Shown here one piece after another: positions 23,314 through 51,461 of a stretch of DNA of 64,000 bases. The position numbers and the translations under genes were made by a program. A model generated the notes under the pieces. The model did no database searches. It saw only the letters and a program-made list of their open reading frames with translations, and was not told where the DNA came from. The stretch's first letter is position 1; each line of letters opens with the position of its first letter. Origin of the DNA: a virus; IMG/VR virus record IMGVR_UViG_3300037483_000443, positions 1 through 64,000 of that record; one strand, written 5' to 3'.

Positions 23314-23547
23314 ATGGCAACTACAAATCTACTTACAGAGATGAAATTAAGAGCTGCTCAAAAGAGCACAGGAAGAACTCACTCTGAAGAATCAAAGAAA
23401 GTGATGAGAGAAAAAAGGCTTCAAAGAACAATTCAACCTTGGAGTGAAAAGAATCATTCCGAAGAAACTAAACAAAAAATAGCAGAAGGCCAAAGACTAG
23501 CTTGGGAGAAAAGAAGAATTCTCAAGAATAAAGGTGTATCACTATGA
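23314..23547 (+). CDS. NUMOD3-only mini protein (homing endonuclease remnant)
   Basis: Two NUMOD3-like units (GRTHSEESKKVMRE, NHSEETKQKI), no nuclease domain; own TAAATA at 23281. Confidence 0.6.
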   Translation: MATTNLLTEMKLRAAQKSTGRTHSEESKKVMREKRLQRTIQPWSEKNHSEETKQKIAEGQRLAWEKRRILKNKGVSL

Positions 23548-27145: not shown

Positions 27146-30100
27146 ATGGCAAACTCTCTAGATCTTACTTCATTACTACCAAACCGAAACCGCGATCGTA
27201 CCATCGACGGTTTGCTTAAGAATCTTTTCAACCGATTCTTAAGCAAACCTGATACCGTTCCTCTCTATGGATTTGTCGGTGATCAATCTGAGCTTTCTCC
27301 AGGTGAAGTTCAGATCACAGAAACAGATCTTGAAAGACAGATCAATCAACTTGAACCCTTTATCTTTTCTCAGCATGCTTCTGAGAAGATAGTTACATCA
27401 TGGTTTGATCTCATCCAAAAGCTTGTTGTATTGGGAGTAGACTATACAACGTTGAACCAGTGGTTCAACAGTAAAAGCTATAACTTTGTCCCTCCGATTG
27501 ACCTGGATAAGTTCTGTAACTTTCAGAATTACTTCTGGATAGGTAATTGGTTCCTGACAAAACCGGCACTAGATTACACTTCTCTTGGATTTGCAACCGT
27601 TTCTACGTATCACGTAGCACCATTTGCCGCTTGGAATAATTCTACTCTAAGTCCTGAGTATTACGTGATTGCCAGAGGGCCACTTCAAACAAATGGCGCT
27701 CCGATAGCTCCTCAGCCTACGTTTTCTAATTCTAGTTCATGGTCTGATTGGTCTTACGGCAACCTTTGGGTTCATCGAGCCGATCTCATTAACTTTGCAA
27801 ATCAGCATAAGATTGATGTATCTATCTCTACTGCAGTACAAGCTACTCGACCGATCATAGAATATTCAGCGTATGTAGGATTAAACGTTGCGCAGACTTC
27901 TGCGGGTGTACCAACGGATGCTGCGTTGGGAACTGGGGTTCCTCAAGCTAAACAGTTCATGAACCAACTGCCGTTGTTCGATCTCTATTACTATGACAAG
28001 ATTCATGCTGGAGTAACTAGTTCAATTTTCTACTACACGGAAGCCCAAGATCAGCCGGTTGACAGTGTGATAGGGCGTCGCCTGACTGTAGATGCAAACG
28101 GTGATTTTATTTTCGGTCACTCCTTGGTGAATTCTATCGACAATTCACTATATTTCTATAAACTGTATGACACCGTAACTACAGTAGCAGGCTCTCACTT
28201 CAAGATGCTAACTATTTGGAGAGAAGGACCTGATGATGCGATAAAATACGTGAAATACGATACATCTGGTTCGCTCATCGACCTTGACAAATTTGTCAAT
28301 TTTTCTAATTACTTCTGGGTTGGTATTGATGCTACACCACAGCCGTCTTATAACCCAACTGGATTGCCCGAGTATTACACGATCGCAAAGGGTGGTACTT
28401 CTGACTGGTCTGTCTACAATTACTGGACTCACGTTAGTGCTTTAAATCGCGCGGATTTGACAAGATATGTACAAGCAACAAAGCCAATCATTGAGTTTAA
28501 TGTAGCACTTGAAAGTCAATTAGTTGTCTATGGGAAAACTGTTCGCGCTGAAATGCCGATTTTCAAGCACTTTGTGTTTGATCAACCAACACAGTCATTC
28601 CAACAGATTCCTCGAGACAATGACAATGATGCATACCTGGCTGGTCATTTGTTTGCACGTCTCTCAGATCTTCCTGCTAGTACACAAGCCGCGGTTACGA
28701 CAAACCCAGAAATCTACACGAACAATTGCTTTAGCTATAACAATGAGATCTACATACAGGGATTGTTCAACGGATCTTACTATGCGTTTGACACCTCATT
28801 GAATTTTTATGGATACAAGTCTCGCCTGGTATCTTTCAACGGTGAGGGTAACGGTAGTGCTACGATCAATGCTCTTAGCTCAACGGCATACCCAGAACTT
28901 ATCGTTCTGACTTATAATGGAACTTCATTTAATGCCGTTGGTAGCGTTTCTGGAGATAATGGATTTGTTGACGTGGGGGTAGAAACTTCTATCCAAGGCA
29001 TCACGATCAAAATTGACGTAGGAAGCACACCTTACGCGATTGGTGACGTTTATACCTTTGAGATTACGAGCTACGTGTTCTCTCCAGTCAACATTTACGT
29101 ATACGTCAACGGAGTATATAGAACTCTAAACTCTCCTATTCAGATTACTACTCAAGTTCAAAACACAACCGTTGTTGAAACTGACGTATCCCGCCAAGAT
29201 GGTGTTTGGACACCTCCCCCACAACTTGAATGGAACATTCTAAATGAGACAAGATCTACTGTCAGTGAAGGGGATCTCTACTATCATTTAACTTCTATCA
29301 TCGCAGCACAGCCTGGACTTATTGGATCTGCTACTGGAACGAACAACTGGAGAACATTATCACCGGATGTAGGACTTGGTGGTAAGATCAAACAGTTTGA
29401 TGGGAATACTGCACTACTTATTTCAATGTTGATGCAGAGAGGAATTTCTACCCTTTCTCTGATTGAGTTCGCCCGTGAGTCTTACCAAGCATTTTCCACC
29501 TCAATCAGAACATTTGTTCAAGACATTTTGCCTGACATGATCGCGGCAGGGCAAATCTCCCTTCCGAAGAATGTACCGGCTGGTATCTTCGTTAATGGGC
29601 AATCTTACGTTATCACTGAGATCGGAACTACTGACTTTACGGCGATAGGAGCTTCTAGTAACTCCATCGGTCTATCGTTTATTGCTACCGGTCCTGGAGA
29701 TGGTACTGGCTCTGCTGACGAAAACTCAATTGATTCTGAAATTGTTTCTTCTTTCATGACGTACTTCAGCCGTCAATCTCCGCTGGTTCTCTCAACGTCG
29801 ACTCCAGTAGATGACACTATATCTAGCCCCTTCTATGATTCGACTGCTGAGATCTTCAACTTGGTAATTACTCTTCCGTACATGGGGTTGACACCTAAAG
29901 CACTGCCTCAGAAGATCTTTGATGCTGATTTGAATCTAGAGATGCTTGTTCACCATGATGGTCACCGAACCAAACTAGAATCTAATCCAACCGACCTTGC
30001 TAAAAAGTTAGCACAAAAACTATACGTGCGCTCTCCAGGAGAATCTACTCCTGGATTTATCGCGGCTGATTATCCAGTACGCCCGTACGCCGGACAATTC

Positions 30101-33100: not shown

Positions 33101-35716
33101 ATTCTTGATCTAGGTGGCGATCTTACTCAGGCTGTGAATTTGATACCAGGACTTGCGTATAACATCATCTCTCAAGGAACTTCAACTGACTTTACCTTGA
33201 TCGGGGCTGCAAACAACAACGTTGGTACTTCATTTGTTGCTACAGGCCCAGGGTATGGTAACGGTGTTGCGACGATCAGTCCTATCGTTCTAGGCGTAAC
33301 TGCTATAATTGTAGGGCAAACTTACACCATCACTACTCTTGGAAACACTGACTTTACACTAATCGGTGCAGCCGCCAACTTGGTCGGTGTAACGTTTACC
33401 GCGGTAAACGTTGGGGTAGGAACTGGTACGGTAACTGCAGTTTCGGCGTTAACTAGTGCAGGTTCATTCGTTATTGGTGTAACATACACCATCAACACTA
33501 CAGGTGTATTAACTGACTTTACGCAAGTTGGTGCACCAAACAACAACGTTGGAACAGAGTTTATCGCGACCGCCGCTGGGACTGGTAGTGGAACCGCAGC
33601 GACGGTAGTAGTTACAGGGTCTCTACAAGTGGTTGCATATGGCCCGGCTTCAAGTTGGTACAGCCCAAACTTGCTTTATGATTATGTTAACAACGTTCTA
33701 GTTAAGAATGACATCATTTGGTGGGATCCGGGTAGGGGAATTCACCACCCACAAGCAGCAGCATCTATCTCTTATGACTTAGATTCCGATCCTGCAATCT
33801 ATACCAGTTCTCTCCTAAGTGATGCAAAGGTATCAAACTTGAAACCCTGGGGATCTGCTCAGGTAGGTAAGATCTGGTGGAATACCGAGAACTTGCACTA
33901 CAAACCATATTCTGATGATAAACAAGTTCCTCAGGTAAAAGATAGAATTGCCTCATGGGGAGCTTTATCTGACATGTCAAGCATCGAGATCTATGAGTGG
34001 GTTAAGTCACAAGTACCTCCGAGTTCTGCAGTTCTTGGACAAAGCATGAATGGCGAGCCTGCGATTACCAACACTTTGACTCGTACACGTACATGGTGGC
34101 AGCGTCCGGTAGCTTGGAGATATTCTTCAAATCCTGATATCACCCCAAGGGCGTTCTTGCAGTATCAACCATCTAGACTGCAGATTACCTACTTTAATGG
34201 TGTCGGTCAAGCAACCCTGAAGACGGGAAGCTTTGACACACTTGGAATCATGATTGGTACTAAGATCTCAGGTACAGAATATTCAAGTACTACTAAACTT
34301 GATAATGTCTTGTCAAAGATCTTTGGTCTTGCGATCGTTTCTTCAACGTCGACAACCGTAGTAGGAACCACTGGAGGGTACGCAGATGGCCCTGGATTCA
34401 CGAACAATGCTACGTTCAGTAACTTCCAAGCGGTTCTTGATCAGAATGTTCTGAAGTACAGAACTACTTCTCTTGGTCAATATGCCCTGAGTACTTCTGC
34501 TGACTTGGCAACTGTTTCAGTGGGATCTCTCAACGTTGGAACTGACTATACAATCACTTCGATTGGACAAACGTCTCCAACGACAGCTGGATACCTTGTC
34601 ATTGGAAAGACCTACGTTATCGTTTCGATAGGATCGACCACAAACTTTATGTTGGTTGGGGCTTCTGCAAACACACCCGGTGTAGAATTTGTGGCGACCG
34701 GAATAAGTAGCGGTGATGGTACTGCAATGCTTGTGACCAATAATGTAAATGCCACGGCTTTGATTCCGGGCTTCACTTACGTGATCACAAATACCGGTAC
34801 GACAGATTTTACCGCTGTTGGGGCTTCTGCAAATACAAACGGAACGGTGTTCATTGCTACAGCTGCTACGACCGGATCTGGTACTTGTTCTACCGCAAAT
34901 ACCGACTTTACGACAGTAGGTGCTATCACCGTGTCACCGGGGTCATTTGTGTCTGGGCAGACGTATGTTATCAAGGCAGCTTCTACCGGTGGTACTTCAA
35001 CGAACTTCACGTTGATTGGAGCACCAAATAACACTCCCGGAACAACGTTCACTGCTTCTTTCATCGGTGCCGATCCAACGACAGGCACAGGAAGAGCTTA
35101 CAACGCTACGTTTACAGCTTCAAGTACATCTACCACTGGTACTGGAACAGCGCAGTACTCGGTCAATACATATCTTTCCTTGACCCATGTGAGCTCCGGT
35201 GAATCGCAGAAATTGAAAGTGATCAATTCTACTCGCTCCCAGGGCCAAACTCTTTCCTATAACTTTGACGCGTTGGGTGTCCAAGTAAGTGCGACACTGG
35301 GAGTAAACTTACCGCATGCTTCAACGATTGTCAGTGGACTTGTAAGCGGAAATGCTGACATCAATCTACGTAGTTCTGTGACAGTGAAAATCCCGATGAT
35401 CTTTAATGATGGGACAACTACTTTTACAGAATTTTTCTCTAATACTGACACTCTATCTCAGCTTGGCTGGATAGCTTGGAATGATCCAACGACGAACCCG
35501 AATTTAGGTAATCCTCCACCTAAAAATCTTTATGAACCGCTGGTCGGAGATTGGGTTCAGGTGGGGTCAAATCTTCATGCGGTGTCTGATGATATTGTTC
35601 TTCGTATCTCAGATCCATGGACTTGGTTTGATGGCTTAGATTACACTCCATACAAATCTTCATGGACTGCCTGGACTAAGATGTCTCCTACGATTATTGA
35701 AGCATACAACCTGTAA
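27146..35716 (+). CDS. Very large baseplate/virion structural protein (2856 aa)
   Basis: Follows gp6; duplicated DLDKF-x-NF-x-NYFW domain; EYWAYKVAEYG motif; nine copies of the Thr/Gly module; late promoter at 27122 and SD. Confidence 0.75.
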   Translation: MANSLDLTSLLPNRNRDRTIDGLLKNLFNRFLSKPDTVPLYGFVGDQSELSPGEVQITETDLERQINQLEPFIFSQHASEKIVTSWFDLIQKLVVLGVDYTTLNQWFNSKSYNFVPPIDLDKFCNFQNYFWIGNWFLTKPALDYTSLGFATVSTYHVAPFAAWNNSTLSPEYYVIARGPLQTNGAPIAPQPTFSNSSSWSDWSYGNLWVHRADLINFANQHKIDVSISTAVQATRPIIEYSAYVGLNVAQTSAGVPTDAALGTGVPQAKQFMNQLPLFDLYYYDKIHAGVTSSIFYYTEAQDQPVDSVIGRRLTVDANGDFIFGHSLVNSIDNSLYFYKLYDTVTTVAGSHFKMLTIWREGPDDAIKYVKYDTSGSLIDLDKFVNFSNYFWVGIDATPQPSYNPTGLPEYYTIAKGGTSDWSVYNYWTHVSALNRADLTRYVQATKPIIEFNVALESQLVVYGKTVRAEMPIFKHFVFDQPTQSFQQIPRDNDNDAYLAGHLFARLSDLPASTQAAVTTNPEIYTNNCFSYNNEIYIQGLFNGSYYAFDTSLNFYGYKSRLVSFNGEGNGSATINALSSTAYPELIVLTYNGTSFNAVGSVSGDNGFVDVGVETSIQGITIKIDVGSTPYAIGDVYTFEITSYVFSPVNIYVYVNGVYRTLNSPIQITTQVQNTTVVETDVSRQDGVWTPPPQLEWNILNETRSTVSEGDLYYHLTSIIAAQPGLIGSATGTNNWRTLSPDVGLGGKIKQFDGNTALLISMLMQRGISTLSLIEFARESYQAFSTSIRTFVQDILPDMIAAGQISLPKNVPAGIFVNGQSYVITEIGTTDFTAIGASSNSIGLSFIATGPGDGTGSADENSIDSEIVSSFMTYFSRQSPLVLSTSTPVDDTISSPFYDSTAEIFNLVITLPYMGLTPKALPQKIFDADLNLEMLVHHDGHRTKLESNPTDLAKKLAQKLYVRSPGESTPGFIAADYPVRPYAGQFWFNTITGKLFIFDAVSDSGELLSGVKYGAYSYDRSTNQVWQTDGQDWTLLTDLQSDRLPWTEVKLDLIINNLELNLETELFDECPTLNPRVDEVGLQAYSNFSSMMDAEFQSFGIRHNINDIYSNPQIYAFWTKTLEYLYSLQKTYFKLDPLTYVRESWGVKHLTVDEYTLNPQLGRKEAPPDFTLHGEVLDELAQSSWVSASLVNLPPFHLTPGQSYIITSVGTTDWTLWGAYANEVGVQFTVPLNAQIGPGSGTGTASVLPPLFTRTYYFKCANRTDGMFYTYLDDEDAARELTEPLTNGYLPYYGYTPFSAPPLKADPVFSEAIGNDLTYRDKYLDVTITATRRGFFWGDIFKITVTSDGVISVETIPQQYFKAEGFNQLFVQYGRIYGEDASLSINTTLLKDWSVKLGYRFGGMVNTDTLTVKTQDTIDSSGYNVYLKENLFNSSSWINALRVQVVQKGATEMLNGVSVPVIGFGGSPGEDWIFRIDNYNKNRTSLSWYNYDLVGDQHKFIALDGLATDYYEWARYTSKTTISTLNAPFLITGIQNLINFVFGYADKLEADGWRFNDPNNPRIDPTTGLHVGYQSLVESFIVQQFSGVNAGSVFVFNPFGQKVWFETSHGFVSNVNNVLGFETETVNAILDQNAKQVSKNDIRVFRQDDITEMVFDTPVYTLHLLTSEFEHVVLFENKATNTLLIYDPFLGQRVSRIFMSGQKQANFSGQIDFGGHFLLGNEMKKNIESSVNSIINLYDTTVKDVDSQILDRSRSLLGYQKKSYFDVRGTTDTSQFRFWQGMIANKGTNFSVDAFINSASYHDAILDEYWAYKVAEYGDSRSIIKTELLVQPEDCIGEYANFIFLESDDISTQSTDSANLYDNVVYDYNGFSASSQLDVTGLIPVSATDETRWFSYSDLNTLSYLEAQPIATMFLPSANQIAVGSCFVITDSNGRPVRADRFEIINFNSTSASTIIFREAGDYIVGTNPPDFSLPRFERLNQSVIKILDLGGDLTQAVNLIPGLAYNIISQGTSTDFTLIGAANNNVGTSFVATGPGYGNGVATISPIVLGVTAIIVGQTYTITTLGNTDFTLIGAAANLVGVTFTAVNVGVGTGTVTAVSALTSAGSFVIGVTYTINTTGVLTDFTQVGAPNNNVGTEFIATAAGTGSGTAATVVVTGSLQVVAYGPASSWYSPNLLYDYVNNVLVKNDIIWWDPGRGIHHPQAAASISYDLDSDPAIYTSSLLSDAKVSNLKPWGSAQVGKIWWNTENLHYKPYSDDKQVPQVKDRIASWGALSDMSSIEIYEWVKSQVPPSSAVLGQSMNGEPAITNTLTRTRTWWQRPVAWRYSSNPDITPRAFLQYQPSRLQITYFNGVGQATLKTGSFDTLGIMIGTKISGTEYSSTTKLDNVLSKIFGLAIVSSTSTTVVGTTGGYADGPGFTNNATFSNFQAVLDQNVLKYRTTSLGQYALSTSADLATVSVGSLNVGTDYTITSIGQTSPTTAGYLVIGKTYVIVSIGSTTNFMLVGASANTPGVEFVATGISSGDGTAMLVTNNVNATALIPGFTYVITNTGTTDFTAVGASANTNGTVFIATAATTGSGTCSTANTDFTTVGAITVSPGSFVSGQTYVIKAASTGGTSTNFTLIGAPNNTPGTTFTASFIGADPTTGTGRAYNATFTASSTSTTGTGTAQYSVNTYLSLTHVSSGESQKLKVINSTRSQGQTLSYNFDALGVQVSATLGVNLPHASTIVSGLVSGNADINLRSSVTVKIPMIFNDGTTTFTEFFSNTDTLSQLGWIAWNDPTTNPNLGNPPPKNLYEPLVGDWVQVGSNLHAVSDDIVLRISDPWTWFDGLDYTPYKSSWTAWTKMSPTIIEAYNL

Positions 35717-38658: not shown

Positions 38659-41600
38659 ATGGCTTCTAACATCGATCCAACAAGACCAACGCATGTCAAC
38701 CCTCAAACTGAGGACGTGCGTCTTAATTTTCAGCATGCTCATGATGAAATCAATGTTCTTCAAGAACAAGTAGCTGGAATTTTGATAGGTCCTACTGGCC
38801 CCACTGGTCCCACTGGTCCTACTGGCCCCACTGGACCTACTGGCCCCACTGGTCCTACCGGTCCTACTGGCCCCACTGGTCCCACTGGTCCTACTGGCCC
38901 TTCAGTGACAGGTCCTATCGGTCCTACCGGGTCAAATAGTGTCTTAACTGAAGTTGCTGGATTGGAAGATCTCCCAGTTCCGGGTACTCTTCCGAACTTC
39001 AATGAATATCTAGTCGGTCCTAGAGCTGGTACAAACGATTCTGTACTCGTTGTCAAGGGGTCTAGTGCGGCTTGGGAATTTCCTCAGTATGTGGCAGAGA
39101 TTCAATTTAACGGATCCTCGGTCGGTACTGCAACAGCAGGCGGAACTATCAATACTGTAGTAAGCACTTCTTCAGATTTTACTTCTCTTACTGATACTGC
39201 TAATCCGGTAGGAGTCGGAACACACATCATCCAATTCTTAACTGGTGCTCTTGCAGGTCTTCCTCGATTTGTGACTAGCGTAGTCGGTTCGACGGTAACA
39301 GCAGAAACCCCTTGGGCTTCTGCGCCTTCGGTAGGTGACACTTTCAAGATTTACAAGAGAGATCTTGTGCTCATGAATTCGTTGGAGCAATTTAGCTTTT
39401 CTAAGACGCTGAAACAAAACACAGGTATCAATTATCTGGCCCGTCTAGTTAGAGCTGGTACTAGAGCAGTTCGTGAATATAGTGACATCACAGACGGTGG
39501 AACTGCCGGATTGACTCCAGGGACGATCTCTGAGGCGGCAACTACGTTCAATGCCCAGTTTACGTTGTCTCCTACACCTACAAACGTCTTATCATGTACA
39601 ACAACCGTTGGATCAGACATCATTCTCACTGCTAATACTTCATCGGTATCTATCGGAGATAACATAGCAGGGGTGGGTATCCCTGTAAATTCATGGGTAA
39701 TTGCTATCAATGCTGGAGTAAGCTTTACTATCAACAATTTAGCATCTGCTAACGGTACTGTAACTCTTACAAGTACTCGTTATTGGGTTCGCGATCGTTC
39801 TAATGCAGGTGATCACTCTTATCTTCGTAGAATCAATGAAAGCTACGAAGAAGAAATTTGGTTTTCTGACAACACCGTCGCTGCCACTGGTGTTTTGTGG
39901 CAGCTACGCAGCCGCATCCAATTGATTACAGGTCAGAATCACCTGTATGGTATCTTGACTGTTACACAAGACCCATCTACTCAATTTGAACTCGCGACCA
40001 AGGGATACGTAGATGCTACAGCCCAGGGATTAAACATCAAAGATCCGGTGCACTGTGCAGCAAACGGAGTCAATGTTGTTTTGTCTGGTGTTCAAACTAT
40101 CGACGGATTCTTGGGTACTGCTGGGGTAACCCGTGTACTGCTTGCATATCAAGCAGTACCTTCTGAGAACGGAATTTGGATCATGCAGACAGGTGCATGG
40201 ACCCGCTCTACCGATACAAACAACCCTGGAGTGAATTCTGCACCAACCGCAACGAACATGATTCGAGGATATACTTTTGTCGCAAACGGTAATAACACGA
40301 CCGGTACTTCGTGGGTCATGACTACTAACCCATATACTCTTGATACTACTGCGCTGGTATGGACTCAGTTCTTTGCAGCGGGATCAATTACCGCGTCACA
40401 GGGGCTGCAGAAGATCGGGTCTGATATTCAAACTAAACTCAACCCTTCTGATTTGCGTGTCAACGGAACTACTGGCGATCTTGAAATTCAACCCGCAATT
40501 ACCGGACACACGTACGACGGACTTACTCTTACTTCTAATGCAGTAGGATTTAGCATCTCCGGTGGTTCAACTGCAAAAAATTTAGTTCTCAACAACAGTC
40601 TAAGTTTTTCTGGAACCGATGGTTCTACTTTGAACATTGGGGGTGGTGGTACCTTAGGAACAGCCGCGTACATAAATTTCGTAAACGCAGGTCGAGGTGT
40701 TGTAGATTTTAATACATCGACTAGACCAACTGGAGTTTACGCAGTTGAAGGTGCAGGAAGTAACGGACCGGGCCTGGCATACCCTAACTTAATTCACTGC
40801 ATGAATTCTAACGACTTAGCTTTCCAGATTGCTGGTGGTTACACTACCGATAAAATGTACTTTAGAGGTGGCTATAATCTTACGACGACACCCGGATGGA
40901 CCACGTGGAGAGAAATCATTCACTCTGGCAACATCTCAAGTCAGTCAGTATACTCATCTACCCTGGTTAATAGCGTATTAGATGGTGGAATCGTTAATAA
41001 CCAATCGGGTGCATCTGGATGGATCGGTAGAATCATATCAAAGAATGTTGCATCCGATTCTTCTGTCGCGATAGGAACTTGCAACGGCCTACCTTCCATA
41101 GCATCACACAACTATGCTCTTACTGCCTGGAAAGATCTGTATGTTAATACAGTTGATGGTTCAGGTGGAGGAACGATACGGATGCCTGGCGGGATCGTCA
41201 TTACACCTGGCACGATCAATGCTACAAGTTTCGTAGGAACTGCTTCGAATGCTACTACGTTTATTGGGAACTGGACCAATTGGGTATCATATCGCTCTCA
41301 AGCGGTTGCGAACATGCTGGGTTGGAAGGCATACGGCAACAATCATGTGATCTTTGACGCCTCCGCAGGCTCGTCCCCCACCGGCTCGGCGGTGAACAAC
41401 ACCAACGCCCAAATTCCGTGGGCTGGATCTTATCCGACGTTAATGGGTTGGAACGGGGTAAACACCTTTGGTGTCAGAGTAGACAGCGCGAGGGTGGCGG
41501 ACAACGGCATCTCCAAGTTCATATCCACGATACTGACGGTTCCGACCGCGGTCGCACAGGCACAATCTGTAGCTCATGGACTTGGTGCAGTTCCAGCGTT

Positions 41601-41847
41601 AGTAAGATTAGTAGCTGTATGTAAAGTCGCTGGATATGGATATGCCGTTGGAGATGAGGCTGAAGTTCTATGTGGTGCGTATGACAATGGCAACGTTCAG
41701 CTCAAACCGTGGGCAAGTGCAACCTACGTCGGTTGGAGTTCAGGCTCAAATATGATGATAATAAATCGAAGCTTAGCCCAAGGTAATGCGCTGAATATAA
41801 TTAACCTCGGCGTGTACTTCGGTCTAAGGGTATATGCTTACTTATAA
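38659..41847 (+). CDS. Tail fibre protein with collagen-like repeat
   Basis: (GPT)12; ATKGYVD...GLNIKDPV...QTIDG...RVLL...NGIW module; variable C-terminal tip. Confidence 0.8.
38788..38895 (+). repeat. Collagen-like (GPT)x12 coding tandem repeat
   Basis: 12 units of GGNCCNACN. Confidence 0.95.
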
Positions 41848-41855
41848 ATGGAAAT

Positions 41856-42074
41856 ATGATGAAAACTGAACTCTTAAATCTTGGATATGCCCCCGTCCCT
41901 CATAAGTTAAGCAATGAGACAATCTGTGTGGGAGTGGTACTCCCACTTTCAAGGCATCCGGACATCGTGTCTACATTGATTTCCTCTATTTCACCCAAAA
42001 AAATCGATAGTAATCACCAAACTTTGGAACTTGGTAAAGATCTGCTGCTCTTTTGGCCTAACATTGCTTACTAA
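41856..42074 (+). CDS. Hypothetical protein
   Basis: 72-aa ORF filling the gap in the operon. Confidence 0.45.
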   Translation: MMKTELLNLGYAPVPHKLSNETICVGVVLPLSRHPDIVSTLISSISPKKIDSNHQTLELGKDLLLFWPNIAY

Positions 42075-42079
42075 GCCCG

Positions 42080-44452
42080 ATGAATATAAATGATGCCCTC
42101 ACCCAAGCGTTGATCGATTACATCAACGATGTCAAGCCGTTTCACACTAAGTTTCGTGAAACAGCTTCACAGATCTTTTTTGAAGATCAGTTTAATGTAA
42201 ATGTGAGTGAAAACTATATCGTTGAGTCACACTTCAAGAATTCTTGGGGACGAGACGATCTCGGAGGTTTTGGTCTACAGAAGCTCTCAGAAGGAGATCT
42301 TGATGATGCCACATACACTCTTCCAGCAACGGTCTTCTCAAATTTTAGTCTCAATGACGGGATAAACGTAGGTCAGACTCCTGTAGGTAACGATCCAGCT
42401 ACACTCAACGCAGACGGTAGTGGGTTTCCGTTTATTGATTCTGGTGATGGAATTCCAGATTCGGAAACTCCCTGGGAAGTTACTGCTGGAAGCTTCATAG
42501 TCGGTAACTCATATACGATCGTTTCTATCGGATCTACTGATTTTTCTCTCATCGGCGCAACAGTAGTCACTGCTGGATCTCTCAGCTATGGCAGATCATA
42601 CATGATTCTTGCTGCGAATACAACGGATTTTACGCTTGTTGGATCGGATTCTAATACAGCTGGTACAATCTTCCAGGCAACCGGGCATGGAGTAGGTACT
42701 GGAACCGTCTATGAATTAAGATTCACGGCAACCGGCCCTGGAACGGGAACTGGTAAAGCTGCGCTGAATACTTTTTCCCATCAAATGGGAAGCAACCAGA
42801 TTCCAGTTGAAGCAAAAATTTTATCAGTGGTCTACGGTAACACATCCTTTTCAATTACATTTGACGCAAGTTACGAAGCCACCTATGGTTTCGACCCAAA
42901 TCTGATCAGAGTTACCGTCAATGATCAAGAATATGACGTTGCAGATACAGCGTTCTTTGTTAAAACGAGCACTCCCGTACCAGGGTACACAAATGCAGCT
43001 ACGATCACTATGACGATTCCCGGTGGATTGATCGCCCCAGCAAATCGTGTAACGGTGACATACTTGAGTACAGGGCGGTTCTTAGTGCCGTTTCACCAAG
43101 GATCCCGCGTTCGAGTTGACGGAAGCTTACAACAATTGGGTGTTCATTACGTAATTGATAAAACCAGAACATTCATTCAATTTCTACCAAACCGTCATCC
43201 TCGACTCTCACATCATGTAGACATAAATCTTATGAAGTCTGATAAGTTGTTCATCTGTAAGCATGATCCGTTTGCCTACAGGGGATTTCAAGATACGTTC
43301 ATAGTAACATCCGTTTCAACTCCAGGTTTTGTTAGTGCAGGTTCACTTGTTATAGGTTTGGGATATACGATCATGACGGTTGGAACTACTGACTTTACCC
43401 AAATTGGAGCGGCATCGAATACCGTTGGATTGACTTTTACTGCTACCGGAATAGGTGCAGGGACTGGTGCTGCTGCTCCTGCTTCTATGACAAATTTGAG
43501 AATGTCTACCAAAGAGATTCTTGCTGGTTTTTCTTACATCATCATCTCGGCTGACACTGCTGACTTGACGATGATCGGAGCTAACGATAATCTACCAGGA
43601 ACATCTTTTACTGCATCTGCAAATGGAAACATTCTTGTTGGATCTGGCTCGGTAGTCCCTAGTGTCACCTGTAGTGTTCAGTTCAATAACGCAGACCCTC
43701 TCACTCACAAGGCTCAACTAACGAACGTCATCACGACAGCATCTGCTGGAACTGTATGGACCTTAACAGCCATCGGTCCGTGGACTTTTCAAGTACAGAA
43801 AACTTCTCCCCTAAGCTCAACCACGACCAAAGCTTACTTCAAAGTACCGTATGGTGATGGAGAGCTGTCTTTTACGTTAGATCGAACCTGGGTAAACTAT
43901 TACGTTAGTGATAATGTAGCTTATGTCTCCTACGACATTCAACAAGATGTGAATAGCTACTACACATATGATGAGTCACTGCTCGGCACTGGGGATGGAT
44001 ACGGAGCAGAAGAATTCTTCCCAAATCTTGACTCTGTTACCGAACATGGAGTTGTGTCTGATCCAGTTCCACCGATACACTCACCGGTTCGATTCAATCA
44101 GTTTGGGATCGTTAGTAAAACTTCTGACGGAAGTTACAAGTTCATATTTGACACGATTCCTCCTCGTTATACATACGTAGAATTCAAAGTAGAAAAGGCT
44201 GATCAATACAACCCATCGGTTAGAACTGCTATCACTGAAGATGTGAAGCTCTACGTGACCTATGATTCTATCACTGAAGGTGGAATCGTGGCCGGAAATA
44301 CTTACGTTATCAACTCTGTCGGGTTCTCTGATTTTACGGCAATCGGCGCCCCATCAAACACGGTAGGAGTGATGTTTTTGGCTTTATTAGATGGAAACCC
44401 ATTTGGGTCAGGAACTGTTTCGAGAATAGAAACAGTTCCTCTTACTCCTTAA
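42080..44452 (+). CDS. Virion structural protein with five Thr/Gly modules
   Basis: LIDYINDVKPFHTKFR N-terminus as seen in jumbo-phage baseplate proteins; repeats visible. Confidence 0.7.
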   Translation: MNINDALTQALIDYINDVKPFHTKFRETASQIFFEDQFNVNVSENYIVESHFKNSWGRDDLGGFGLQKLSEGDLDDATYTLPATVFSNFSLNDGINVGQTPVGNDPATLNADGSGFPFIDSGDGIPDSETPWEVTAGSFIVGNSYTIVSIGSTDFSLIGATVVTAGSLSYGRSYMILAANTTDFTLVGSDSNTAGTIFQATGHGVGTGTVYELRFTATGPGTGTGKAALNTFSHQMGSNQIPVEAKILSVVYGNTSFSITFDASYEATYGFDPNLIRVTVNDQEYDVADTAFFVKTSTPVPGYTNAATITMTIPGGLIAPANRVTVTYLSTGRFLVPFHQGSRVRVDGSLQQLGVHYVIDKTRTFIQFLPNRHPRLSHHVDINLMKSDKLFICKHDPFAYRGFQDTFIVTSVSTPGFVSAGSLVIGLGYTIMTVGTTDFTQIGAASNTVGLTFTATGIGAGTGAAAPASMTNLRMSTKEILAGFSYIIISADTADLTMIGANDNLPGTSFTASANGNILVGSGSVVPSVTCSVQFNNADPLTHKAQLTNVITTASAGTVWTLTAIGPWTFQVQKTSPLSSTTTKAYFKVPYGDGELSFTLDRTWVNYYVSDNVAYVSYDIQQDVNSYYTYDESLLGTGDGYGAEEFFPNLDSVTEHGVVSDPVPPIHSPVRFNQFGIVSKTSDGSYKFIFDTIPPRYTYVEFKVEKADQYNPSVRTAITEDVKLYVTYDSITEGGIVAGNTYVINSVGFSDFTAIGAPSNTVGVMFLALLDGNPFGSGTVSRIETVPLTP

Positions 44453-44495
44453 AATTGAGAACCATCTACATAAATAGAAATATGAAAGGTACAAG

Positions 44496-45071
44496 ATGAG
44501 AGAAAAATTTGAAATTGAAGTTGAGGGACGAGTACAGATCTTTGATCATGAAACAAGAGAACTTTTGCGTGATACTAAGAACGCTGTTCATCCACAGAAT
44601 ATGGCGATGATGATCGCGAAAGCTATCTCTCGCGATACTGCAACATCCCCAGGCATTCTTCAGTTGTGCTTTGGAAATGGTGGAACTTTCTTTAACTCAA
44701 GCAATCAAATAGTGTTTCGCCCGCCAAATACCGTTGGTGTGTCTGCTCTATACAATCAAACTTACTCTGTTCAAGTTGATGATCAGGTTACCGGCACCCC
44801 GTCAACTAATTCTGTCATTTATTCAGCTTCTCCTAGTCCAGCTATCACTTCAATCGTGACCGTAACGGCTCAATTGAATGCTAATGAGCCGGCTGGACAG
44901 GCAGTAACTGACAACGTCACTACAAATCCTAACTCTCTGTTTACATTTGATGAGATTGGATTAAAAGCTGCAGATGGTTCTTTGTTGACGCACTTAGTGT
45001 TTTCACCATTTGAAAAAACTGCTAACCGCGCTTTTCTCATCATCTATACCTTGACGATCAGCGTTTCTTAA
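44496..45071 (+). CDS. Baseplate/fibre attachment structural protein
   Basis: EGRVQIFD...KNAVH...FGNGG...FDEIGL...LLTHLVFSPFEKTANRAFLIIYTLTI. Confidence 0.7.
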   Translation: MREKFEIEVEGRVQIFDHETRELLRDTKNAVHPQNMAMMIAKAISRDTATSPGILQLCFGNGGTFFNSSNQIVFRPPNTVGVSALYNQTYSVQVDDQVTGTPSTNSVIYSASPSPAITSIVTVTAQLNANEPAGQAVTDNVTTNPNSLFTFDEIGLKAADGSLLTHLVFSPFEKTANRAFLIIYTLTISVS

Positions 45072-45088
45072 ATTTTGGGATGAAATAA

Positions 45089-45307
45089 ATGGATGAATTT
45101 TCAACAACCGACATCGTACTAGCAGCCTATCTAAAAGTGCAAGGCTACAAGCTGATAGAAATTCTTAAGAATGGAAACAAGGGAACTTTTGTGTTTGCTG
45201 GTGTTCACGAGGAGATCGTCAATGAATATGATCTTGGACAAGCCAGAGTTGAACCTAAAGCTCTCAACTACGAGATAAAATCTTTGACGACTGCAGCTCG
45301 TAGATAA
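45089..45307 (+). CDS. DUF5659-like small protein
   Basis: FSTTDIVLAAYL...G...FVF...VEP pattern. Confidence 0.55.
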   Translation: MDEFSTTDIVLAAYLKVQGYKLIEILKNGNKGTFVFAGVHEEIVNEYDLGQARVEPKALNYEIKSLTTAARR

Positions 45308-45316
45308 GGAAACCTG

Positions 45317-46624
45317 ATGACCTACATTTTGACATGGAGTGATTCTTCACTGAAGCCAACCCCGATCACGTTAGCAAACAACGTGATCAGTTCAAACGCG
45401 CTTTCTATCACGTTAACAGGAAAGGGAGCTGTTAACTGGGGATTTCCTCTTCAAGAAGATTTGATGCACATGTTAGAAAACTTTGCATCAAACGGCACTG
45501 CACCACAGTATGCAACTCTCGGTCAGCTGTGGTATAATGCTGCAACAAAGCATCTAAACATCAACACAGCTGTTGGTTGGGCCGAGCTTGCATATCGTCG
45601 CGTTGATTCTTCTTCTCCCCCATCTCCCCCGTCTTATTCTGGAGATACGTGGTTTGACACTACAAATCACTTCTTTAACGTATATGATTCAGCTGGAGCT
45701 GGTTCTTGGAATCGCTTGGCCTTTACTACTCAAGTTCAAGGAAACTATTCAGTAGAACAACCTGGAAGCATAGCGAATGCTTACATCGTTGTGCTAAACC
45801 CAACGATCGCTTCATATGCCAATAACTTTACCGGATCGTTCAAGGTAAGTCACGCAAATACCGGTGCATGTACTATCAATGTTGGAGGTGGAGCTGTTCC
45901 ACTAAGAAACCCCAATGGAGGAGCGTTAGTTAACGGTGATCTTCTAGCTGGACAGATAGTTTCTTATGTTTATGTGCTCAATGACAATGCAGCCTACGTC
46001 GTTTCGGTTACTCAAAGTCAAACTGATACCCGATATGCAAAGTTGGCTGGTCTCAGCACTCAAACTTTCAACGTTGCTACAGCAACGGTTGGAACCCACG
46101 CGATCAATCTTACTCAGGCAAATTCTCTTTATGCTCCGATCATCGCTAACAGCAATTTAGTTCCTGTTGGAACTGTGATCGATTTTGCCGGGCCTAATGC
46201 ACCAGATACAACTTATCTTGTGTGCCCTGCTTCTGCTGGGTCTGTTTCACCCCCTCAGTTGTTACAAATCTCTCAATATCCAGATTTATTTGCGGCGTTA
46301 GGGTACACTTATGGTGGTGTCGCTGGACAAACTTTTGGAATTCCTTGGTTTCCGACTGGTTTTCCATCTATCGCTGCAAACGCTGGTGGAGGCGCACCTG
46401 TAGGATCATCTTCTCACGGAATGCTGATGGAACACCACCACACTTACGGTTGGAGAGCATCTTTAGCAGCCCAATCTGGATCATCAACTCCATGTTGGGT
46501 CGGTGATTCTACACAAAATACTTCAGGATACATTGATGCACACGGCCGAGTGGGTACTAGTCAAGTTGACAATATGCCGGCAGGCATGTATATGTTGAAG
46601 TGTATTAAAGCAAAGAAAGTGTAA
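45317..46624 (+). CDS. Short tail fibre / tail-collar-domain protein
   Basis: HMLENFAS...GQLWYN N-terminal module; VPVGTVIDFAG...YPDLFAALGYTYGG collar domain; HHH motif; CIKA end. Confidence 0.75.
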   Translation: MTYILTWSDSSLKPTPITLANNVISSNALSITLTGKGAVNWGFPLQEDLMHMLENFASNGTAPQYATLGQLWYNAATKHLNINTAVGWAELAYRRVDSSSPPSPPSYSGDTWFDTTNHFFNVYDSAGAGSWNRLAFTTQVQGNYSVEQPGSIANAYIVVLNPTIASYANNFTGSFKVSHANTGACTINVGGGAVPLRNPNGGALVNGDLLAGQIVSYVYVLNDNAAYVVSVTQSQTDTRYAKLAGLSTQTFNVATATVGTHAINLTQANSLYAPIIANSNLVPVGTVIDFAGPNAPDTTYLVCPASAGSVSPPQLLQISQYPDLFAALGYTYGGVAGQTFGIPWFPTGFPSIAANAGGGAPVGSSSHGMLMEHHHTYGWRASLAAQSGSSTPCWVGDSTQNTSGYIDAHGRVGTSQVDNMPAGMYMLKCIKAKKV

Positions 46625-46633
46625 AGGAAGATA

Positions 46634-48802
46634 ATGGCTGACTATATCTTACGGTGGTCAAGTACTCAAATAGTTACAGGCTTGTTTGATCCAGGTACCC
46701 AATACATCATTACGACTTCTGGCAATACCGATTTCACTTCTTTTGGGTCTGTGAACAACAATGTTGGCACTACCTTCATAGCAAACAACAATACGATCAC
46801 TCCAACGTCATTGATCATTGGAAAAGCTTATAAGATCTTGACGTTGGGTTCTACCGTTTTTTCTACTGTGGGTGCACTGCTTACTAATGCTGGTAACTTC
46901 ATTAGTGGAAATACGTACATCATCTCTACCGTCGGTACTACAAATTTTACATTGATCGGGGCCTCCAGCAATACTGTTGGAACTATCTTTACTGCATCCT
47001 TCGTTGGAACTGACCCTACTGCTGGGACTACAGGATCTGCGTTTGGCCAACAATTTGTTGCTTCTGCGGTTGGAACTGGAACTGGTACCGTAACTGGAAA
47101 TTGTGGTTCTGGAACTGCAACCACAGCATTTAAACCTTCACTTACAGTTTCTGAAACTGCGATAGATTCAACTTCGACATCTTTATCTCTTTCAGGGCGT
47201 GGATCTGTAGATTGGGGTAGATTGATCCAGGAAAACATGCTGCGGGTAACGGAAAATTTTGCTGATAAGATAGAACCGCTAGCACCAACAATCGGACAGA
47301 CTTGGTACAACTCTCTCGGCGGCAACTTGAATCTATATTCACAGAATTCTGTTGCTGCTGGATCTTTCGTGATAGGTCAAACATACACGATTTCTAGTGT
47401 CGGAACTACTGATTTTACTCTAATCGGTGCTGTAGGTAATAGCATTGGGATGACTTTTGTTGCAACTGGTGTAGGATCTGGAACAGGTACTGCGATGTCT
47501 TCTTCACCGACTTGGAAGGAAGTTCCAACGGTGAATCATGCGAGCCTGGTCGCTGCTTTGATGTTTCCAAAGCCGGAGTGGCCGGTGTTCCCTTGCTACG
47601 AGGTAGGAGCAGAAACGACAAGGATAGTTAATGGAAGTACGATTGAAACATTCGTATTCAATGGCGTGAATTTGTCCTATGGTGAGATGACCGATACGAG
47701 ATGTACTAGCGTTGGTGCTCTAGCTGCTACAGATGATGCTGATGCAAGATTTGGATATGTTTTCAAAGTGGGAAGTATCTATTATCAGACATACCAACGT
47801 GCCGCGGATGGCCAAATAGGGTTGAAGAAGAGCATAAACAAGCTCAACTGGACAGTAATAAATGGTGGTAATCCCGTACTATCTGGTGGTGCGATTGGAT
47901 CAATTTATTACCATACGTGGAATACAGGCGTCTATGTCTCTGGTGATACGTGGCATTTGTGGGTTGAATGTGGAGCTGCTGGAGACCAATCTGACGTTGG
48001 GATTGCTTATTCGTATGGAACGTTTTCCGGGGATGTAATCAATTTTGATACCCACAGAACGGCATCGCATGTTATAAGAGGAGGTGGTCAGCCTAATCCT
48101 GTACTTATTGATAACTACTTAGTTATGCTGCATGGCTCTATCAACGTCCAAGACCGTACGTTATGGGAGATTCGCGCAGCAACTGTACTTGTTACTTCAA
48201 ATTGGGCATTACCAGAAAGCTATACAGAGTCGCCATATTTCCAGGTCAAATATCAAGGTATGCATACAGCTGATCCGGACTTTGTGGATTTCGGCACCAC
48301 GAAATCACACAGATTGGGAATCGGTTTCATGTACAACCAAAATAGGTCAGACCTCCTTTACCTTGATATGACGCCTGCTCAGTTCTTGGATGCCTTGTTA
48401 AATGGTTACCGAGGAGGGTTTGGTAGATACCCAAAGTTCAGCGAAACACTTTCGCTCGCATGTGGAAGCGGCAGTGTAACGATGAATACTGGATTTAGTT
48501 ACTTCTATTGGCAGATCGTAGGCAACGTTCTGGAGTTCCAATTCTCGTTCGTTGTAGGAACTACAAGCATTCCTGGAGGCAGACTTAGTGTAACCCTACC
48601 TTTTTCAATTTTCCCGACAAAGCCAATGAGCGGAGTTTGCCATGCCTACAACATAGTCGGAGTTCTTGGAGTTTACGAATACGAAATATCAGGGTCAACG
48701 ATGTACATAGACCGATTTGAGGCAGGTGTACAGAATCTAGACGCAGCTGCTCAACTCGTTCCTGATTCTACGTTGAAGGGTTTCGGAATAATAATCTTCT
48801 GA
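46634..48802 (+). CDS. Tail fibre/receptor-binding protein with nested Thr/Gly modules and putative beta-propeller glycoside-hydrolase-like domain
   Basis: N-terminal module paralogous to 45317 (ENFA...GQTWYN); GGNPVL, WHLW, IAYS, ADPD propeller-like motifs. Confidence 0.65.
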   Translation: MADYILRWSSTQIVTGLFDPGTQYIITTSGNTDFTSFGSVNNNVGTTFIANNNTITPTSLIIGKAYKILTLGSTVFSTVGALLTNAGNFISGNTYIISTVGTTNFTLIGASSNTVGTIFTASFVGTDPTAGTTGSAFGQQFVASAVGTGTGTVTGNCGSGTATTAFKPSLTVSETAIDSTSTSLSLSGRGSVDWGRLIQENMLRVTENFADKIEPLAPTIGQTWYNSLGGNLNLYSQNSVAAGSFVIGQTYTISSVGTTDFTLIGAVGNSIGMTFVATGVGSGTGTAMSSSPTWKEVPTVNHASLVAALMFPKPEWPVFPCYEVGAETTRIVNGSTIETFVFNGVNLSYGEMTDTRCTSVGALAATDDADARFGYVFKVGSIYYQTYQRAADGQIGLKKSINKLNWTVINGGNPVLSGGAIGSIYYHTWNTGVYVSGDTWHLWVECGAAGDQSDVGIAYSYGTFSGDVINFDTHRTASHVIRGGGQPNPVLIDNYLVMLHGSINVQDRTLWEIRAATVLVTSNWALPESYTESPYFQVKYQGMHTADPDFVDFGTTKSHRLGIGFMYNQNRSDLLYLDMTPAQFLDALLNGYRGGFGRYPKFSETLSLACGSGSVTMNTGFSYFYWQIVGNVLEFQFSFVVGTTSIPGGRLSVTLPFSIFPTKPMSGVCHAYNIVGVLGVYEYEISGSTMYIDRFEAGVQNLDAAAQLVPDSTLKGFGIIIF

Positions 48803-48887
48803 CGAGGTCATGGACAGGTAGTGTATCTGGCATATTATGTTCAGTTGGCCGGCATTGGCGGTATTTAATCTTTTGTAAAGGGTAACT

Positions 48888-49241
48888 ATGTTTGATCAAA
48901 TTTCACTTATCTTTGCAGACATGACAGCTACAATGGCGGGAAAGGTATTCTCTCTACTGTTGATCGCTGTCGTGCTAATTCTTTTTCTGTTGGCTCATAG
49001 AGATCCAAGTAGTAAGATTGACTTGAGCGATCTGTTCGTAGATCAATCTGGAAAAATTGGCGGAAGTCAGATGAGATTGAATCTTGCATTCGCTCTCAGC
49101 TCTTGGGTCATCATCTTCTCGACTCTGAACGGCAACCTTTCCGAGTGGTTGTTCTCTGCTTACATTGCAGCTTTCGTGTATGATCGCATCGCATCACGGA
49201 AATCTAGCGGAACGAAGCCCTCAGTAGATGAATCTCAGTAA
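48888..49241 (+). CDS. Holin-like membrane protein
   Basis: Two to three hydrophobic segments, charged C-tail, last gene of the structural operon. Confidence 0.5.
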   Translation: MFDQISLIFADMTATMAGKVFSLLLIAVVLILFLLAHRDPSSKIDLSDLFVDQSGKIGGSQMRLNLAFALSSWVIIFSTLNGNLSEWLFSAYIAAFVYDRIASRKSSGTKPSVDESQ

Positions 49242-49991: not shown

Positions 49992-51461
49992 TTACTCTTC
50001 TTCCTCATACTCTTCGACATCACTTTCCGGAGCATCGTGCTGAACTTTGTCATCGTCGGTATGAACGATAACTGGAAGACCTAGAGCTTGGAGAGCATTG
50101 CGACCGATGAGTACTTCATACTTCATGTTAGAGCGATCGTTGAGCGTAAACTCAATTTGATTGAGGCGAGTGTTACGCATGACAAGATCGAGACGAACGA
50201 CTGGACGACGTGGAGCTTCACCGTTCACCGTCATCGCGTTTCGGATCTTCACTGTCTTAAAGACAGGTACTTGGTATGTCACGTCACCACGAGTAAAGCG
50301 GACAGTGTTCTCGAGCATCTCAACGTGGTCGACGTGTAAGGAGCAGAACTTTGCACCGGTGTCGATGCGAGCTTCCACGTCACTGGTAATGCGATTGATT
50401 GCGACGATCTCGGTCTCGCCGATTGTGTCTTGAGTAGGTGCAGGAACTTGAGGAGGAGCTTCGTCCTTAACCTGATCTTCGACGTCTTCCGGTGGAACTT
50501 CAGCTGATTCAGTACCCATAATGTACTCAATGACGGTCTTCGGGAGATTCTTGTCAGGCCAATTCTTCTGAATTGCTTCAAGACCAGGAGAACCGTTGAC
50601 TTCCAAGACGATGATCTTTTTATCTTCCGTGATCAGGTAGTCGATCGCACAGAAGTTACAGCCAAAGAGCTCTACGATCTGTCGAGCCACGTTCAGCTCA
50701 TCGTCTGATGGTTTGTAGATCTCAGTTTCAGAGCCTAGGTGAGAGTTGGTGCGAAACTCGTCTTTCTCTTTCGGTTGACCACGAAGGTTTGCTGCGAGCA
50801 TCTCGGTACCGATCATGATGATTCGTGCTGAACGCTCATGTTTGCAGAACTCTTGCAGCATGAAGTCAAGGCCTTCCTTGGCAAGCAACTGACAAACAGA
50901 GACGAGAGATGATCGGCTGTCTACCTTCATGACCCCGATGCCGTGAGTACCTCGTAGTGTCTTGATGACGAACGGGTACTTAATCTTCTTTTCTTCTTCA
51001 AGCTTAGCAACGACAGTCTCGATCTCGTCAAGACCTTGAATCATCACGCTGTAGGGTGACTTGATTCCTGCCGAGTTCAGAACGATCTGAGTCATCAGCT
51101 TATCATTGCACAGCTCCATTGACTCTGGAGAGTTCAACAATTTTGCGCCCTGTTTTTCGAGACGCTTCAAGATGCCGATCTTTACTAGCATGTTGTACTC
51201 GTTCAATCGAGGAATGACAGCTGTCTCGGTGTCAACCTTGACTTCGGTAAGAGTACCCTTTTCAACGTCTACGGAATAGACTGCGCTCTTCAGCTTGAAG
51301 TTTTCAGGTGAGTCACCTTCAAGTTCTTCACAGAGAACGGTCTTAGAGATGTCGAGGATCTCTGCTTTGAGACCTAGTTTCTCTGCTTCTTTTTGAAGTT
51401 CTACTGGTACAAAGTTAGAAGGTTCTGCTGTTACAAGCAGCACTTTTTTGATGGTCATCAC
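49992..51461 (-). CDS. RimK-like ATP-grasp ligase fused to RimB-like (retropepsin-fold) protease
   Basis: NDKL...PFVIKTLRGTHGIGV...LQEF...FRTNSHLG...AIDYL...LEVNGSPG; C-terminal ARIDTGAKFCSLH...RRPVV...FTLNDRSNMKYEVLIGRN. Confidence 0.88.
   Translation of the reverse strand: MMTIKKVLLVTAEPSNFVPVELQKEAEKLGLKAEILDISKTVLCEELEGDSPENFKLKSAVYSVDVEKGTLTEVKVDTETAVIPRLNEYNMLVKIGILKRLEKQGAKLLNSPESMELCNDKLMTQIVLNSAGIKSPYSVMIQGLDEIETVVAKLEEEKKIKYPFVIKTLRGTHGIGVMKVDSRSSLVSVCQLLAKEGLDFMLQEFCKHERSARIIMIGTEMLAANLRGQPKEKDEFRTNSHLGSETEIYKPSDDELNVARQIVELFGCNFCAIDYLITEDKKIIVLEVNGSPGLEAIQKNWPDKNLPKTVIEYIMGTESAEVPPEDVEDQVKDEAPPQVPAPTQDTIGETEIVAINRITSDVEARIDTGAKFCSLHVDHVEMLENTVRFTRGDVTYQVPVFKTVKIRNAMTVNGEAPRRPVVRLDLVMRNTRLNQIEFTLNDRSNMKYEVLIGRNALQALGLPVIVHTDDDKVQHDAPESDVEEYEEEE

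Follow-up and report, generated by a model that had tools for sequence, protein, structure and literature searches.

How does a phage protein come to carry some 150 residues that are missing from the neighbouring protein with which it shares its N-terminal domain? We addressed this question in the first 64 kb (64,000 nucleotides (nt); hereafter, the window) of the IMG/VR virus record IMGVR_UViG_3300037483_000443, which is 135,654 bp long, has a CheckV completeness of 37%, and derives from an uncultured giant phage. The gene concerned, located at 46634..48802 on the plus strand (hereafter, 46634), encodes a tail-fibre-type protein of 722 amino acids (aa). It was delineated from the open reading frame (ORF) list and the sequence, and its coding nature from the proportions of nonsynonymous and synonymous differences (pN/pS); its ATG, with AGGAAG in front of it, lies 9 nt past the stop codon of the preceding gene. 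An earlier note, made from the letters alone, had read the extra residues as copies of one small module set inside each other. We confirm that 46634 contains self-nested modules and, as far as sequence evidence goes, the triple nest is real.

The neighbour, the paralogue 45317 (45317..46624, plus strand, 435 aa), shares the N-terminal domain, here at aa 1-100 (45317-45616), and also contains a phage tail collar domain. By BLASTP, aa 164-234 of 46634 align with aa 10-82 of 45317 (27/73 identical, 37%, E 2e-13), and the N-terminal YILRWS/YILTWS stretches pair at aa 4-13 and 3-12 (5/10 identical; E 2.7, not significant alone). Between WS and KP lie 157 residues in 46634 versus 4 in 45317, an excess of ~153. 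The host domain of 46634 is in two parts, a first piece (aa 1-16, M-A-D-YILRWS..., 46634..46681, plus strand) that the nest cuts off from the remaining domain, and a main body (aa 165-238, 47126..47347, plus strand) whose homology to 45317 aa 10-82 is supported by BLASTP, PHROG and host-domain profile. In both proteins the domain matches phrog_14394, 'virion structural protein' (46634 aa 179-234, E 4.3e-5; 45317 aa 14-77, E 3e-7). A host-domain hidden Markov model (HMM) built from four insert-free homologues aligned to intact 46634 at profile positions 15-83 (59.1 bits), and to 46634 with all modules cut in silico from end to end, at positions 2-90 (70.1 bits). The alignment of the two proteins and the ~150 extra residues between WS and KP had been claimed in the earlier note, which also expected the N-termini to align once the modules were removed; all of this held.

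We parsed the insert with a module HMM built from seven clean copies of this genome, which found no match in the 45317 ORF. In 46634 it returned five ordered pieces within the insert and one complete copy at aa 240-288. The outgoing pieces cover profile positions 4-41 (aa 16-53), 3-27 (aa 57-81) and 2-43 (aa 85-126), and the returning ones positions 26-49 (aa 131-154) and 44-50 (aa 158-164; independent E value 420, insignificant alone). Their order is thus first half of copy 1, first half of copy 2, a complete copy, second half of copy 2, second half of copy 1, with complementary halves. In a peel test, in which complete modules are found, excised in silico and the remainder rescanned, copy 3 came out first (aa 85-134, 61.3 bits, positions 1-48). 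A full-length copy 2 then emerged (aa 58-84 plus 135-154, positions 3-48, 30.9 bits, junction at position 28), followed by a full-length copy 1 (aa 17-57 plus 155-164, positions 4-49, 38.6 bits, junction at position 40). Copy 4 was recovered at aa 242-289 (72.5 bits, ~47348-47500). All four copies, including the reconstituted outer ones, fit one profile (positions 2-49) with conserved G, Y, I, G, TDF, G, F, A and G. HMM pieces and peel give the same parse, copy 1 containing copy 2 containing copy 3, that had been proposed by eye. The predicted fourth copy at 47348-47494, after WYN..LNLY, was likewise recovered, and the proposed closure of copy 1 by a G-S-G-T-A piece is supported by the score of the joined copy.

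The module is ~48 residues long, with the consensus G..Y.I...G.TDFT..GA..N..G..F.A.G.G.GTG.A. G, Y, I, G, N, G, F and G are invariant among 13 aligned window copies, and across 730 distinct copies the conserved positions are glycines, core hydrophobics, a T-D-F-T turn and one Asn. From the 13-copy alignment, AlphaFold2 (AF2) confidently predicted a single module to be a beta-alpha-beta-beta mini-domain of strand, short helix, strand and strand (strands 11-16, 35-37 and 47-50, helix 22-25), with a predicted local distance difference test score (pLDDT) of 96.0 and a predicted template modelling score (pTM) of 0.77. When junctions were mapped onto this model (profile position equals model residue minus one), 88 of 92 fell in the three loops between the elements, 22 at positions 16-20 (loop A), 33 at 25-33 (loop B) and 33 at 37-45 (loop C); two more lay at positions 14-15 and two at 3-4. 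The 78 outer copies left after dropping window duplicates form 39 clusters at 60% identity, and the counts become 19 for loop C, 15 for loop B, 8 for loop A (here positions 14-20) and 2 for other positions.

Followed along the chain of 46634, where all features lie on the plus strand, copy 1 opens with strand 1, a short helix and strand 2 (aa 17-57, 46682..46804) and is broken at profile position 40, in loop C. In an AF2 model of aa 1-300, made from an 8-row alignment, this piece has a strand at 23-25, a helix at 34-37 and a strand at 47-49 (pLDDT 68-76). Copy 2 opens with strand 1 and the helix (aa 58-84, 46805..46885; strand 65-70, helix 76-79, pLDDT 78-90) and is broken at position 28, in loop B, where the innermost and uninterrupted copy 3 follows (aa 85-134, 46886..47035, 61.3 bits; strands 94-99, 118-120 and 135-138, helix 105-108). 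The chain then returns through the closing strands 2 and 3 of copy 2 (aa 135-154, 47036..47095, profile positions 26-49; strands 140-142 and 152-154, block pLDDT 85 and 83) and the last strand of copy 1, of G-S-G-T-A type (aa 155-164, 47096..47125), the least certain piece, for which the joined copy scores 38.6 bits and AF2 confidence is low. Copy 4 (aa 239-289, 47348..47500) is a single module after the WYN...LNLY hairpin, identified by profile score (72.5 bits), alignment and AF2 (pLDDT 82-92). A structure prediction had been suggested as a check by the earlier note. In this one, copies 2, 3 and 4 show the canonical elements (block pLDDT 78-93) and the returning half of copy 2 has two strands (pLDDT 83-85); the host domain and the piece that closes copy 1 came out at low confidence.

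We used two controls to ask how often such an arrangement arises by chance. Written as tokens (strand 1 plus helix, strand 2, strand 3), the order of elements in 46634 is that of a depth-3 nest, and 2114 of 300000 shuffled orders parse; the token expressions were adjusted post hoc, after module leaders had been mis-tokenised. We also ran the peel on 247 proteins (243 database relatives and 4 from this genome; 245 distinct, since two duplicate window proteins). It found 795 complete copies at the first pass, with 68 and then 11 more appearing only after inner copies had been excised. Among the 245 distinct proteins a complete module spanned 72 of 775 excision junctions, compared with 14, 19, 15, 5 and 10 of 775 when right flanks were swapped between proteins and 0/775 when flanks were shuffled.

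Self-nesting is a habit of the module and is not confined to 46634. This genome holds ~18 module copies spread over three genes, and the other two each contain a nest. In the 790-aa protein encoded at 42080, an outer module (aa 135-163 plus 213-228) holds an inner one (aa 164-212) at loop B (42482..42763, plus strand), and the outer copy scores 44.6 bits after excision with its junction at profile position 32. In the 2856-aa protein encoded at 27146, the peel gave an outer module cut into four pieces, twice at loop A and once at loop B, by three inner copies (34520..35155, plus strand); after excision it spans positions 2-48 and scores 24.7 bits, or 4.6 bits once composition is corrected for. 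Tandem arrays of modules also occur, for example three consecutive copies in the 2856-aa protein. In a database relative, P0002, aa 335-858 read as ten modules. Loop C is the opening point in five of them and loop B in four, and nine closing pieces follow in exactly reverse order and type; its token string has depth 10, and 0/300000 shuffles parse. The depth of 10 is a post hoc token parse, and the HMM peel confirmed the two innermost levels only, as the loop-C closing pieces are too short for local HMM alignment. By eye, one composite, in which an outer module takes up two inner ones at loop A and a third at loop B, seems to recur in two unrelated host proteins, at 34520-35155 and in the ORFs of the related loci L009/L013 (~aa 100-345), where the outermost module read by eye did not emerge in the HMM peel. 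This recurrence may indicate that whole nests move, or are selected, as units.

The history of the nest can be followed in homologues. An orthologue, P0001, lies on a 9.5-kb metagenome contig (L089) whose genes come in the same order. Over aa 1-300 the two proteins share 63% identity, and the peel recovers the identical nest in P0001. The two nests align over 155 codons without a gap, with pN 0.236 and a saturated pS of 0.79, indicating that the nest is old and has been kept by selection on the protein; pN in the host domain is 0.29. Every piece has a positional orthologue in P0001, and for each copy that counterpart is the closest match (80% identity for copy 3); 8/10 residues of the copy 1 closing piece are retained. 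Beyond the nest, aa 300-722 of 46634 (47534-48802) have no detectable similarity to P0001 (L089 2400-5399), the middle of which resembles 45317 (39% over 164 aa). The domain at the N-terminus was kept together with its nest, while the distal, presumably receptor-binding part was exchanged.

Across a set of 12 proteins with the host domain, the first site (after W-S/T) is occupied to different degrees. It holds no module in 7/12 (45317, which is P0244, and P0245, P0246, P0247, P0040, P0018 and P0067), one in P0002, two nested in P0056, and three nested in 46634 and P0001. The second site, that of copy 4, is filled in 46634, P0001, P0018 and P0067 and empty in 45317 and P0056. The use of 45317 as an empty-site control, as put forward in the earlier note, is therefore sound and extends to a 0/1/2/3 series. 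A filled and an empty state can also be compared within a module itself: one that is intact in P0077 and locus L013 is split by an inner module at loop A in P0032 and locus L009, in proteins 88% identical with flanking DNA 84% identical, and the outer copy scores 57.2 bits after excision. Whole-module insertions or deletions are found as well in non-module loops between proteins 86-90% identical, and 75/80 loci of the P0032 family lack any module. Among these P0032 relatives, which are large proteins (L009-L013 versus L014-L088), a module-only block of ~230-280 aa stands in place of an 8-residue loop in 5/80 loci.

Without any nesting, the pieces in 46634 might instead be strung out as a simple tandem array, whole copies mixed with degenerate partial ones, and the 'closing' pieces would then be remnants or linkers rich in Gly and Thr. 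Some pieces can indeed be read two ways, given the likeness between the module leader (A-G-x-F-V-x-G) and strand 2 (G-x-x-F-x-A). The final closing piece has few residues and is insignificant alone, and real tandem arrays exist in this genome. Such an array does not, however, lead one to expect first and second halves that are equal in number, run in reverse order, and break and resume at the same profile position, nor joined halves that score 30.9-57.2 bits as full-length modules. The excess of spanning modules at true over swapped flank pairs, the rarity of the depth-3 token order among shuffles and the confident AF2 strands in the returning half of copy 2 argue in the same direction, and we regard a tandem array as very unlikely. 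A different history, in which the modules are ancestral to both paralogues and were lost from 45317 and the other insert-free homologues, so that the empty site is secondary, is unlikely. Whole-module differences between close relatives have no polarity by themselves, but most of the host domains carry no insert, the most distant ones (P0040, P0018 and P0067) among them, the graded series fits stepwise gain, and most loci of the P0032 family carry no module. Loss would also have to remove a whole nest precisely and restore the short loop, many times. Insertion rather than loss is supported by parsimony and by the other families.

The number of copies in three genes of one genome, and their variable presence between close relatives, could also point to a currently active mobile DNA element, an in-frame 'jumping' cassette with its own transposition or homing. 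We consider this extremely unlikely: copies within the 46634 gene share just 13-35-nt imperfect matches, and synonymous sites of the orthologous nests are saturated. At the L009/L013 junction one codon is replaced in frame by ~54 without a duplication, and the inner and outer copies differ at most synonymous positions. The insertion events are old, and the DNA bears no sign of recent mobility. Self-nested domain insertion as a whole is probably the best explanation.

Several observations weigh against this explanation or limit it. The closing piece of copy 1, ~10 residues with little score of its own, is its weakest point, and whether the nest is triple, or double plus an open copy, hangs on these few residues and on how well they are conserved. 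Taken as a whole, the AF2 model of aa 1-300 has mediocre confidence (mean pLDDT 66.2, pTM 0.44), and it is poor for the closing piece of copy 1 and for the host domain (29-42). That the split halves pack into complete domains is something we infer from secondary structure and pLDDT. The swapped-flank control is above zero, and the junction counts take in related proteins, with just the 39 clusters being distinct. At the DNA level, the short imperfect matches among copies in the 46634 gene leave no trace of a mechanism. The microhomology or target-site duplication for which the earlier note proposed to search was seen neither in the window nor at the L009/L013 junction, where 84% flank identity could have erased traces. 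Conserved glycines and core hydrophobics, finally, hint at no binding site.

We propose that, time and again, an autonomous module of ~48 aa has been inserted in frame into loops at the surface of phage baseplate and fibre proteins, with the module's own three loops among the targets. In 46634, the first loop of the N-terminal fibre domain would have received one module, just past W-S; a second would sit in the last loop of that module, and a third in the helix-to-strand-2 loop of the second. The chain would therefore run through two first halves, one whole module and two second halves on its way back, with a fourth module in another loop of the host domain. The modules may have arisen by illegitimate in-frame recombination or duplication, with selection sparing only landings in loops, and would form a compact branched cluster on the virion periphery. 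From protein context and variability we tentatively predict that they serve as a surface-adhesion or decoration element there, a role that we hold to be possible but short of an even chance. The depths observed at the first site are 0, 1, 2 and 3, and P0002 apparently reaches 10. More speculatively, and rather doubtfully, the module could represent an undescribed fold family that acts as a recursive building block. Further modules could follow strand 1, the helix or strand 2 before strand 3 closes the unit, and fibres would in this way grow branched, tree-shaped arms of any depth. Depth would then be a fast-evolving, selectable trait setting the valency of a weak adhesin, and hence adsorption and host range.

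Searched with the module profile, 1.84 billion cluster representatives gave 4013 matches at E <= 0.001, 1896 of them at E <= 1e-10. The Pfam families that co-occur with the module in relatives (PF18454, PF13229, PF12708, PF13550, PF07484, PF11134, PF13884 and PF02839) are tail fibre and tail tip types, Collar and CBM_5_12 among them. The module itself has no name in the databases searched. Pfam-A gave no match to cut-off on module copies of 46634 (E <= 0.1), the 790-aa protein or the 2856-aa protein (E <= 0.01); PF02719, which touches one copy in the 790-aa protein (aa 492-545), was rejected as below cut-off (E 0.091). NCBIfam assigned no family to 46634, the 790-aa protein or 45317, PHROG matches were confined to the host domain, and the best PDB match by sequence, an alkaline phosphatase at E 0.54, was taken as chance. 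Foldseek of the module model against PDB gave nothing at E <= 0.001 (best E 3.4), and the top ESM Atlas score, 0.81, was to unnamed viral clusters. BFVD gave 7 matches at E <= 0.001 to uncultured phage proteins with the same fold; six are labelled 'Uncharacterized protein' and one 'YHYH domain containing protein', and none of the 7 has a functional annotation for the module. One module subtype, recognisable by its longer last loop (F-T-A-S-F-x-G-x-D-P-T type), tends to occupy the innermost or inserted position and was seen at 46886-47035, 34940-35095, P0001 aa 358-406, P0127 and P0002 aa 18-68; the nearest copy of this subtype to copy 3 of 46634 is in the 2856-aa protein (68% identity).

Small accessory domains are familiar from phage virions. 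Fraser et al. in 2006 reportedly described Ig-like, Big_2 and FN3 domains as promiscuous decoration domains of phage virion proteins. They are small accessories on tail, fibre and capsid proteins, vary among homologues, and are thought to provide weak surface adhesion. The module resembles them in being a small accessory domain that is variably present among homologues; to our knowledge, however, Ig-like, Big_2 and FN3 domains are usually appended or in tandem and not self-nested. Identity with them was rejected, as there is no Pfam match and the 51-residue model is strand-helix-strand-strand. An exhaustive VIA search with the single-module model gave 4o6j_A (Z 3.6, root-mean-square deviation 2.1 over 44 residues) and 3e19_A (Z 3.5) among top rows of Z 3.4-3.6. 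The best structural matches are the DtxR/IdeR C-terminal SH3-like domain and FeoA, yet Z stays below 5 and no row stands clear. Membership of the FeoA/DtxR SH3-like group by sequence was also rejected, with neither a Pfam match nor a sequence relation to the module, and the SH3-like resemblance may serve as a weak topology lead only.

Domain insertion is common, and repeated self-nesting is in print for very few proteins. The closest published analogue is the Si3 insertion of the cyanobacterial RNA polymerase (RNAP) beta' subunit, which has recursively inserted HABAS/sandwich-barrel hybrid motif domains described as 'six-level nested structures' (PMC13114784). Si3 shares with the nest of 46634 a small beta-rich domain that sits in loops of its own copies, over several levels, inside a host domain. 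The module differs in its smaller size (~48 aa) and in its strand-helix-strand-strand fold. It occurs in many unrelated virion proteins (the 4013 clusters) where Si3 belongs to one enzyme lineage, and its copy number varies between close relatives, with the ten levels of P0002 known by a post hoc grammar only. In the VIA search, which covered 48161 chains, no HABAS chain was among the 21 matches listed, and two RNAP beta' rows had Z 2.6-2.7 over 34 residues. A second analogue is the pair of nested DysF domains in the ferlins dysferlin and myoferlin (PMC3898210). There too one copy lies inside another of the same domain, but the ferlin nest is two-level, fixed, eukaryotic, intracellular and not promiscuous, with no sequence or fold relation to the module. 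In full-text literature, supplements aside, we found no paper on nested or recursive domain insertion in phage proteins, and the motif strings appeared in none. Set against these cases, the module is unnamed, short at 48 residues and present in thousands of clusters; it accepts insertions in all three of its loops and reaches variable depth among homologues of one host domain.

These nests form a natural series for how much insertion a minimal fold tolerates. Protein designers could also use the module as a compact scaffold for branched or multivalent constructs, and its presence could serve as a marker when peripheral virion proteins are annotated. Current pipelines overlook it, as it has no family and one database gene call starts past the nest. 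That call, P0006 (521 aa), is one of the 12 host-domain proteins and is the window's own gene truncated N-terminally, starting at the internal Met aa 202 (47237-48802); it drops the entire nest and most of the host domain. The longer 46634 ORF is favoured because the orthologue P0001 supports it and pN is well under pS in the part that P0006 omits. A tblastn search with one module hit just 3 phage records. One un-nested copy (61.2 bits) is present in a 1334-aa 'virion structural protein' of the cultured T4-like cyanophage S-TIM54 (L090, OP053362.1, 4636-8640), a possible experimental system.

The genes around the nest are virion genes, encoding baseplate wedge, collagen-repeat and tail-collar proteins. 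Megablast of 42000-49000 against phages gave zero matches, so no GenBank phage is close in DNA, and the viral contigs scanned with 46634 aa 1-300 gave zero relatives. The C-terminal 422 aa of 46634 have no relatives in PDB. A gp6-like baseplate wedge protein, identified by Pfam and NCBIfam, is encoded at 23544. A 1062-aa collagen-repeat fibre protein (38659-41847; Pfam Collagen, E 2.4e-6) shows consecutive collagen-like G-P-T triplets close to the N-terminus and is probably another fibre. Directly upstream of the 45317/46634 pair lies a 72-aa DUF5659 protein (45089-45307); the corresponding position in L089 is a gap between ORFs 192-767 and 1012-2391. On the other side of the fibre block, on the minus strand, a 489-aa auxiliary gene product (49992-51461) matches phrog_2599, 'ribosomal protein S6 glutaminyl transferase' (RimK-like), at E 6.2e-18.

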